A stretch of 64,000 bases of DNA from Minisyncoccota bacterium (GCA_035548815.1 DASZSF010000005.1:182177-246176), one strand, 5' to 3'; positions 22,692-22,910 are shown, numbered from the stretch's first letter. Program-made: numbers and translations. Notes: generated from the letters alone by a model not told the origin.

Positions 22692-22841
22692 TCAGGCCGG
22701 GCAGATGGCGTCGTAGATGGCGCCGAAGTCGATCATGACGTTGTGGACCGGGCCGCTGGGGGTCACATTGGCGGGGCCGGTGCCGACGATGTCGATCGAG
22801 GCAATGTGGGTAAAGGACTTCAAATTCAAACGGATCGTCAT
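22692..22841 (-). CDS. Small Cys-containing peptide (49 aa), GC3-rich
   Basis: ATG preceded by AGGAGG and by a TTGACA-17-TATAGT promoter. About 85% GC3. Ends ...VMIDFGAIYDAICPA. Confidence 0.4.
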   Translation of the reverse strand: MTIRLNLKSFTHIASIDIVGTGPANVTPSGPVHNVMIDFGAIYDAICPA

Positions 22842-22881
22842 TTTGTCTGCGTAGCCTCCTGTTGCTGCTTCAGACACAATC

Positions 22882-22910
22882 ACTATACGCACTCCATTTT
22901 TTTCTGTCAA
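22882..22910 (-). promoter_or_regulatory. Sigma70-like promoter (TTGACA-17-TATAGT) for the 22.8-kb peptide
   Basis: Read on the minus strand: cTTGACAgaaaaaaatggagtgcgTATAGTg. Confidence 0.45.

Follow-up and report, generated by a model that had tools for sequence, protein, structure and literature searches.

The 49-codon ORF and its expression signals

A small open reading frame (ORF) of 49 codons lies on the minus strand of the 64,000-nucleotide (nt) stretch of Minisyncoccota DNA analysed here (the window), inside the 1250-nt spacer between rpsA, the gene of ribosomal protein S1, and a divergent MBL-fold hydrolase gene. We found that the ORF is framed by a near-consensus promoter and downstream hairpins, that it carries a strong period-3 coding signal, and that units of the same build recur on the same strand of this spacer in related genomes. 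The elements of the unit are as follows.

22882..22910, minus strand: near-consensus sigma-70-type promoter, TTGACA (22910-22905), 17-nt spacer, TATAGT (22887-22882), an 11/12 match
22842..22876, minus strand: predicted 5' leader with a small hairpin (UGUCUG...CAGACA), holding the Shine-Dalgarno (SD) sequence AGGAGG in its loop
22692..22841, minus strand: 49-codon ORF, ATG to TGA, encoding MTIRLNLKSFTHIASIDIVGTGPANVTPSGPVHNVMIDFGAIYDAICPA, identified from the sequence, the period-3 signal and the gene callers
22619..22683, minus strand: GC-rich, imperfect long hairpin in the 3' untranslated region, from folding of the 3' region
22582..22615, minus strand: terminator-like hairpin with a 12-bp perfect stem (100% complementary) and a 10-nt loop; the weak U tract behind it reads CUUCGACUUUAU

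Promoter-like sites matching at least 11 of 12 positions occur four times in the 64 kb, against 0.55 expected from shuffles, and TTGACA-17-TATAGT is one of the four. The AGGAGG at 22860-22855 precedes the ATG by 13 nt, above the optimal gap. It is conspicuous because native genes mostly lack an SD: a motif of at least 5 nt stands before only 3 of the 56 long ORFs of the window, and the upstream regions of called genes agree. The ORF, the promoter and the AGGAGG had been described in an initial annotation of this DNA, and all were present on re-examination. For the 146-nt 3' region the folding energy is -68 kcal/mol (z=-5.7 relative to shuffled sequence), and the whole predicted transcript of ~310 nt (22875-22565) has a folding z of -3.95.

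Several starts have been proposed for this ORF. The initial annotation had mentioned a 72-amino-acid (aa) version starting at a TTG, which we confirmed to be the TTG of the -35 hexamer itself. Gene callers begin at GTG 22883 (63 aa) or GTG 22877 (61 aa), in or beside the -10 hexamer, and the NCBI entry, hypothetical protein VG984_01995, has 61 aa; the public annotations of 61 and 63 aa thus probably start inside the promoter. In the N-terminal extension given by the annotations, 14 codons long, the third positions read GTGTAAAAACCACA, with A at a fraction of 0.5 (A3) compared to 0 in the ORF body. Since these third positions are unlike those of the body, the leader is not coding, and the 49-aa model with its start at ATG 22841 is the best, in preference to the 61- and 63-aa versions.

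Period-3 coding signal

G or C occupies the third position of 44 of the 49 codons (GC3 0.90), with GC1 at 0.47 and GC2 at 0.45, in a genome whose mean GC3 is 0.55 (sd 0.09). Given the amino acids and the codon usage of the genome, 27.5 GC-ending codons would be expected, and none of 200,000 simulations reached 44 (p<5e-6). The period-3 chi-square gave p=1.9e-6 for GC and p=5.9e-8 for C. The signal is limited to ~22690-22830, coinciding with the ORF limits. The high GC3 reported initially was therefore upheld, although not at the reported figure of about 85%, and the excess is almost wholly C (C3 0.69, G3 0.20, A3 0.00). Within the ORF, 35 of the 36 codons from 14 to 49 end in G or C, and the first 13 are native-looking (TTG, AAT, TTT, ATT). 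The C bias parallels that of the S1 and FtsZ genes, in which four-fold sites carry C at 0.52 and 0.42, respectively, and little G.

An ORF on the plus strand (22717..22854) has identical third codon positions, and GC3 alone therefore cannot choose the strand. Two independent gene-calling pipelines put the ORF on the minus strand; our own choice of that strand is made from the expression signals and from the relatives described below.

The rpsA-MBL spacer and its surroundings

The host lineage is Paceibacterota, Adlerbacteria-like, and the nearest relatives recovered are Adlerbacteria-like metagenome-assembled genomes (MAGs). Contig CAZMXM010000007.1 of MAG GCA_964570245.1 matches the window, and the sole database protein matching the 49-codon ORF is labelled 'Candidatus Paceibacterota bacterium'. 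GC content is 51% over the window, and the long ORFs have mean GC1/2/3 of 0.58/0.42/0.55. The spacer and its borders are made up as follows (L003 and similar handles denote individual related loci).

21708..20614, minus strand: rpsA (ribosomal protein S1)
21925-21897, minus strand: S1 promoter TTGCAA-17-TATAGT, kept in the closest relatives L003-L006
21941..21967, minus strand: hairpin AGCCCCGGGG...CCCGGGGCU, which by our reading of the sequence closes the lineage-specific segment immediately upstream of the S1 promoter
21940..22955, no strand: lineage-specific spacer of ~1 kb, from the S1 promoter to the MBL-fold gene, from blastn against relatives
22959..23603, divergent from rpsA: MBL-fold hydrolase gene (PF13483)

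Comparison with the relatives by blastn aligned 21602-21938 (S1 leader and promoter) and 22952-22999 (MBL start) only. As the alignment is confined to the spacer edges, the segment ~21940-22950 is lineage-specific. We found no flanking repeats or target-site duplications at this ~1-kb segment, which had no match among plasmids and only a 56-nt, chance-level match among phages. Downstream of the MBL-fold gene are a conserved 93-aa gene (p93) and then gyrA; genes called within +/-10 kb are those of S1, the MBL-fold protein (PF13483), gyrA, FtsZ/FtsA, HAD, NUDIX, methyltransferase and pilin-like proteins.

The lineage-specific segment holds a second unit (22266..22557, minus strand), with the promoter TTGACA-16-GAAAAT and a TG element (22557-22530), the SD GAGGTG and a 73-aa ORF (22487-22266). 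The product of this ORF starts MRNVPIEVALARLRDDRQALRLMGRKGGK and is basic/acidic and helical-looking; its codons are ordinary (GC3 0.53). Its sole database match is itself and tblastn found nothing in the relatives, making it an ORFan. On the rpsA side, the S1 5' leader contains a window-specific insertion of ~70 nt (~21790-21860), absent from L003-L006, with the palindrome CTAATATGCAAGCATATTAG and the stretch CTCCTCCTCGCTCGC.

Beyond the other end of rpsA, a tRNA-like remnant lies within 20404-20600 (plus strand), with an acceptor GCCGGTA/TGCCGGC and a T-arm GAGGGTTCGATTCCCTC; it was called neither by ARAGORN nor by Rfam at the gathering level. Downstream of it are TTGACA-18-TATACT (20484-20513), among the four best promoters of the window, then AAAGGAG and an ATG, and 3' of these a bidirectional S1 terminator (20565-20600). 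An inverted repeat, perfect over 15 nt (20429-20443 / 20511-20525), connects the tRNA-like part with the 5' end of a ~80-nt unit. Except for the terminator in L005, the 20404-20600 unit is unconserved in the relatives; it may be a small RNA or an integration-site relic.

Recurrence of the architecture in relatives

Related loci were fetched via the MBL protein (n=160), and spacer length was obtained from 122 of them. The order S1 (minus), spacer, MBL (plus), p93 and gyrA is conserved, and the spacer measures 92 to 3562 nt in the 122 loci. The spacer statistics that follow refer to 87 distinct spacers, each 250 nt or longer and together 85 kb. Promoter-like sites of at least 11/12 were found 32 times on the S1 strand and once on the MBL strand, compared to 0.67 in shuffles. 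We defined a strict cassette as a promoter of at least 10/12, an SD and an ORF of 20-220 aa with C3 of at least 0.5 and A3 of at most 0.08. Sixteen strict cassettes were present in 15 of the 87 spacers, all on the S1 strand, with none on the opposite strand and none in shuffles. The 49-codon ORF, likewise in the spacer on the S1 strand, is itself a strict cassette by this definition. SD-preceded ORFs of high GC3 showed the same orientation, with 41 on the S1 strand versus 8 on the other (p=2e-6). When 1.27 Mb were scanned with the strict definition, 17 of the 19 cassettes lay in rpsA-MBL spacers, which make up 7% of that sequence. The other two are both in the window, namely an ORF at 44.9 kb and a 119-aa gene at 12991..13350.

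The position of the promoter also recurs. It lies at most 100 nt from the MBL start in 23 of the 39 spacers of closer relatives, including all five closest ones. In the closest relatives, the S1 strand carries TTGACA-16/17-TA[TC]A[GCT]T at most ~60 nt from the MBL start, and downstream of it a leader, an SD, a small ORF with an extreme preference for C-ending codons and a hairpin terminator. The CTTGACTTGACA doublet of the window was found again in L005. The stop-proximal TGATCG..GGCGC stretch of the 49-codon unit weakly resembles 3' regions of the cassettes of L003, L006, L023, L105 and L024 (p 0.007-0.04); over all comparisons of this region the similarity is marginal (p 0.007-0.09).

The 44.9-kb cassette, which the initial annotation had set beside the 49-codon ORF, has the following elements.

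44741..45001, minus strand: cassette with TTGACA-17-TATTAT (45001-44973), AAGGAG (44928-44923) and a 36-codon ORF (44915-44805)
~44783-44741, minus strand: intrinsic terminator of this cassette

Its AAGGAG stands at 7 nt, and 30 of its 36 codons are GC-ending (p=6e-4). Within the ORF, 51 nt are duplicated in tandem and in frame (41 nt at 80% identity), which yields two IDQ[IV]..DLCNY copies. It sits between clpB and tRNA-Tyr and is apparently uncalled as a gene in public data. The 36-aa peptide is predicted to form one long helix, with a predicted local distance difference test score (pLDDT) of 81, and no homologue of it was found. The 119-aa gene (12991-13350, plus strand) neighbours tRNA-Glu and tRNA-Ser. 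It has a 10/12 promoter, AGGAGG and codons rich in C3 and poor in A3, and nothing in Pfam matches it. It is overlapped by a longer antisense ORF of 188 aa (12802..13368) that is probably spurious.

Codon usage of the cassettes

The relatives' cassettes have a mean C3 of 0.56, compared to 0.39 in their own S1 genes, irrespective of genome background. Pooled and set against the S1, gyrA and MBL genes of their hosts, they were found to be rich in CTG (0.42 vs 0.05-0.10), CGG (0.16 vs 0-0.04) and GCC (0.61 vs 0.20-0.28), and poor in GCA (0.03 vs 0.23-0.34). A TGA stop, often within TGATCG, ends 13 of 20 cassettes versus 8 of the 56 long window ORFs (p=4e-5). The host-avoided codons of the pooled cassettes indicate that their composition is more than an exaggerated host bias. 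The proposal that high GC3 reflects high expression alone is only half supported: the 49-codon ORF resembles S1 and FtsZ, whereas the pooled cassettes favour CTG, CGG and TGA, which the core genes of the hosts avoid.

Other genes of the window differ in composition from the mini-ORFs. A trio of genes resembling type IV secretion system pilins (PF18895; 31409-32788, plus strand) has ordinary codons, with C3 of 0.22-0.27; if these pilins are highly expressed here, high expression by itself does not yield a C3 bias. A cyclopropane-fatty-acid-synthase-like gene (CMAS, PF02353; 49420-50538, minus strand), an unannotated 148-aa ORF (48730-49176, plus strand) and an OMP-decarboxylase-family gene (52938-53888, minus strand) have GC3 within 0.72-0.79, with C3 and G3 both raised. 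Judged by this composition, which is unlike that of the mini-ORFs, all three are likely imports from a GC-richer donor.

These codons also bear on the origin of the 49-codon ORF, which the initial annotation had taken to be horizontally acquired. Such an acquisition is possible. It would fit the lineage-specific ~1-kb segment and the host-avoided CTG, CGG, GCC and TGA stops of the relatives' pooled cassettes; contrary to it, no donor turned up in any of the collections searched (proteins, metagenomes, viral contigs, plasmids and phages), and the bias of the 49-codon ORF is toward C specifically, as in S1 and FtsZ. The composition could stem from a common pool, foreign or mobile, or from a process that raises GC locally, for instance biased conversion associated with recombination.

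Searches with the peptide and comparison of cassette peptides

A word-indexed search of 5.8 billion proteins with the 49-aa peptide recovered the identical sequence only, annotated as 61 aa. A full HMMER scan with the 49/72-aa peptide, run over 1.84 billion representatives, returned the protein itself and three unrelated repeat proteins (leucine-rich-repeat-like, Cys/Asp repeat and BNR-like), which we judged spurious because their scores were summed over 4-6 repeats. No match was obtained in the JGI metagenomes or IMG/VR, nor against the Pfam, PHROGs, NCBIfam and PADLOC profiles or the PDB sequences, with none at E<=1 in Pfam and NCBIfam. At the nucleotide level, the only Rfam 15 matches of the window at the gathering score are tRNAs, and a scan of 21500-23100 by E-value gave only chance-level matches. 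The closest relatives recovered, metagenomes included, have ~80% identity in the MBL protein. The 49-aa peptide has a grand average of hydropathy (GRAVY) of 0.54 and a G/P-rich middle.

Clustering of the spacer ORFs gave small groups only, confined to near relatives. The subfamilies are one with an N-terminal NFSP (M-[KR]-K-x-x-NFSP, with divergent C-termini), a Q-rich one and the L089/L092 pair. They retain their frame across indels of 2, 10 and 15 codons, which supports coding in the relatives' cassettes. A profile was built from seven NFSP cassette peptides picked by eye; its E-values of 1e-8 to 1e-20 come from re-scoring the same seven and are circular, and the profile found no member beyond these training peptides. 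Among the larger cassette proteins that bear signal peptides, phmmer gave no cross-matches. An unbiased 3-mer test on the cassette peptides found none above the family-wise shuffle maximum, and the cassette peptides had no match in Pfam. Motifs noted by eye as links between cassette and window peptides (GH.., IDQ[IV], SGGH) fell at the phmmer, 3-mer and profile tests. The number and position of Cys residues vary among the cassette peptides.

Individual cassettes have further properties. Signal peptides or lipoboxes are present in some spacer cassettes (L014, L017, L013, L092, L100), and several cassette proteins of 100-200 aa with such signals are rich in His, Gly and Asp. The second cassette of L003 (L003:5450-5617, minus strand) encodes 55 aa with 5 Cys and many Ser, Thr and Gly at a GC3 of 0.98, a composition like that of lanthipeptide precursors.

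Interpretation

The analysis shows the anatomy of the unit, its period-3 coding signal, its lineage specificity, and the recurrence and strand bias of the architecture in relatives. From these we infer that the 49-codon ORF is probably transcribed and translated, that its product would be abundant and that it would have a biological role. Our favoured reading, to which we give a probability of about 0.55, is that it is an autonomous, translated, lineage-specific small-protein gene with an abundant product, and a member of a class of hypervariable cassettes alike in architecture. The stretch 22910-22565 (minus strand) would then be a self-contained transcription unit of promoter, AGGAGG leader, 49-codon ORF, GC-rich hairpin and terminator-like hairpin, and the local representative of the small-ORF cassettes that fill the rpsA-MBL spacer in Adlerbacteria-like Paceibacterota. 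Such a class would be defined by position, S1-strand orientation, expression signals and a codon 'dialect' that is C-ending and A-avoiding, and not by peptide sequence. Translation from ATG 22841 would most likely give a ~5-kDa peptide, mildly hydrophobic, weakly acidic and without a signal peptide. The expression signals would persist through turnover or replacement of the coding sequences, and the peptide would therefore probably take part in a fast-evolving, non-housekeeping interaction. Examples would be competition, contact with a partner or host, or phage.

Several observations weigh against this reading. No homologue of the 49-aa peptide outside its own species was present in any collection searched, and the three assemblies that contain the ORF are all identical there; a selection test (dN/dS) is consequently impossible. 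The 13-nt spacing between SD and ATG is long. The hairpin at 22582..22615 has no good U tract, and the terminator scan did not call it because of its loop length and this poor tract. Single-sequence AlphaFold modelled the peptide as strand and coil at low confidence (pLDDT 57.5). The profile of the best-defined subfamily, NFSP, does not match the peptide, and its similarity to the whole cassette set is marginal at most (p(max)=0.25, p(summed score)=0.0075). Finally, the enrichment of TGA stops in the cassettes is not predicted by optimisation for high expression.

The ORF could instead be a decaying relic, comprising the 3' end and terminator of a gene from a GC-richer donor, with a chance promoter upstream and no functional product. 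The contrast in codon usage between codons 1-13 and 14-49, the GC-rich 3' hairpins, the lineage-specific ~1 kb in which both ORFs are ORFans, and the un-hostlike CTG, CGG, GCC and TGA of the pooled cassettes are all consistent with such an origin. We nevertheless regard it as unlikely, since the periodic signal is bounded by the ORF limits, an ATG with AGGAGG stands at its start, and the one-strand layout of promoter, SD, ORF and hairpin in many species is unexpected from chance relics. The searches in proteins, metagenomes, viral contigs, plasmids and phages returned no donor. Reduced GC3 in the first codons is, moreover, common in intact genes too.

The ~310-nt structured transcript might act as a non-coding small RNA in which the ORF is incidental. 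This is improbable, even though the promoter is strong, the 3' part is rich in hairpins, the peptide has no homologue and the SD spacing is suboptimal. Period-3 composition at p about 1e-6 to 1e-8 is a property of coding sequence, and the relatives keep SD, ATG and period-3 ORFs with in-frame indels at the same position. The transcript belongs to no Rfam family at the gathering level, its matches by E-value being at chance level, and as there are no homologues a covariation test is impossible.

A more specific version of the favoured reading makes the product a precursor that is exported and processed, like that of a bacteriocin, a pheromone or a RiPP-like peptide, with a hypervariable C-terminal part as the active portion. 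The products are small, some relatives combine the M-[KR]-K-x-x-NFSP N-terminus with divergent C-termini, the 55-aa cassette of L003 is rich in Cys, Ser and Thr, and there are the signal peptides and lipoboxes listed above. We consider this version quite improbable. No gene for a modifying enzyme, a transporter with a peptidase domain or a sensor occurs within +/-10 kb, the MBL-fold gene is equally present where the spacer is too short for a cassette, no precursor family of Pfam, NCBIfam, PHROG or PADLOC was matched, and the NFSP profile misses the 49-aa peptide.

The initial annotation had suggested that the 49-aa and 44.9-kb peptides belong to one family of small Cys peptides, acquired horizontally and sharing a motif near the C-terminus, I-D-x(3-4)-[IV]-x-D-x-[IL]-C. 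The shared design of their expression signals was borne out: in each case a promoter of 11/12 with 17 nt between its hexamers precedes a strong SD and a C3-rich ORF, and a hairpin lies downstream of the ORF. The sequence relationship did not survive. The motif, as IDFGAIYDAIC, is present in the 49-aa peptide only, and a loosened pattern is needed to obtain an I-D...D..C-like stretch in both. BLASTP gave no alignment of the two at E<=100, and the Smith-Waterman score of 19 is close to the shuffle mean of 18.5 (p=0.44). Nor does any significant similarity link the 49-aa peptide to a cassette peptide of the relatives, and it joins none of the NFSP, Q-rich and L089/L092 subfamilies. The predicted structures of the two peptides differ, Cys is not a common or conserved feature, and no 3-mer is enriched. 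A Cys-peptide family is thus very unlikely. Least likely is that the plus-strand ORF (45 aa) is the real gene, given that, despite the same GC3 periodicity (0.84), it has no plus-strand promoter-like site in 21500-23500 and no SD before its ATG, that the gene callers pick the minus strand, and that the relatives' strict cassettes are 16:0 for the S1 strand.

Returning to the reading of a translated small-protein gene within a class of cassettes, we tentatively propose an extension, which we hold to be possible and less secure than the reading itself: the rpsA side could be a dedicated hotspot at which 1-3 cassettes, each strongly and autonomously expressed, are continually replaced, sharing a 'dialect' of promoter, SD, C-ending codons and TGA, and encoding unrelated peptides. 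If so, this would be a new system for the rapid turnover of abundant small peptides, possibly directed toward hosts, competitors or phages, and the 49-aa and 36-aa ORFs of the window would be members. CPR/Patescibacteria have tiny genomes in which much of the expressed content is unannotated, and they are thought to live attached to other cells; a conserved hotspot that combines very strong expression signals with small ORFs differing from species to species would suggest that these organisms have a fast-evolving repertoire of abundant peptides. The ORF itself was already known as an annotated hypothetical protein and on its own, as an ORFan, is of modest significance. What appears to be undescribed in the literature searched is that cassettes of one architecture recur on one strand at a single hotspot although their peptides are unrelated. 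The at least 16 cassettes in 15 species, with two more in the window, offer a concrete set for metatranscriptomics and peptidomics.

Comparison with known systems

Four known kinds of system were set aside, one of which, the integron, is taken up further below. A type I toxin-antitoxin module is not supported by the peptide, with its GRAVY of 0.54, G/P-rich middle and no long helix in the model, nor by the locus, which has no plus-strand promoter-like site in 21500-23500 and no PADLOC hit. A diversity-generating retroelement was rejected because no part of the region is repeated, whether inside 21700-23000 or anywhere else in the 64 kb; the genes called within +/-10 kb, to which screening for a reverse transcriptase was confined, include no member of such a family. 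A leader-peptide attenuator was rejected because the ORF has no regulatory codon runs and the next ORF downstream carries a promoter of its own.

Other systems share part of the architecture. Like species-restricted small ORFans, the 49-codon ORF is annotated as a hypothetical protein and has neither homologue nor domain; unlike them, it has rare strong expression signals and extreme codon periodicity, and belongs to a positional class found in at least 15 species. As in integrons, the short ORFs of the spacer are unrelated to one another, stand in arrays (here of 1-3), all point the same way at a fixed hotspot and each have an imperfect hairpin behind them. However, integron cassettes are normally promoterless and come with attC and intI, whereas the spacer units carry their own promoter and SD. 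No integrase was found among the called genes within +/-10 kb, and the attC consensus was not specifically searched.

Pherotype and bacteriocin loci (agrD, comC, blp) similarly hold precursor-sized ORFs that diverge sharply between close relatives while position and signals are kept, and some of the relatives' peptides have the semi-conserved N-terminus and variable C-terminus seen there. The rpsA-MBL loci differ from them in having no adjacent genes for processing, export or sensing and no double-glycine or other recognised leader that we could find, and the 49-aa peptide is not demonstrably homologous to the other cassette peptides. Phage morons likewise have their own strong promoter and hairpin terminator, lie between conserved neighbours, vary in presence by genome and deviate in composition. 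In contrast to morons, the spacer unit is not in a prophage (there are no phage genes within +/-10 kb, no PHROG hit and no phage DNA match longer than 56 nt), the cassettes recur at one chromosomal hotspot on one strand, and their products are much smaller than typical moron proteins. Although these differences would place them outside both groups, by analogy the rpsA-MBL cassettes would work most like phage morons or like variable loci of the pherotype kind.

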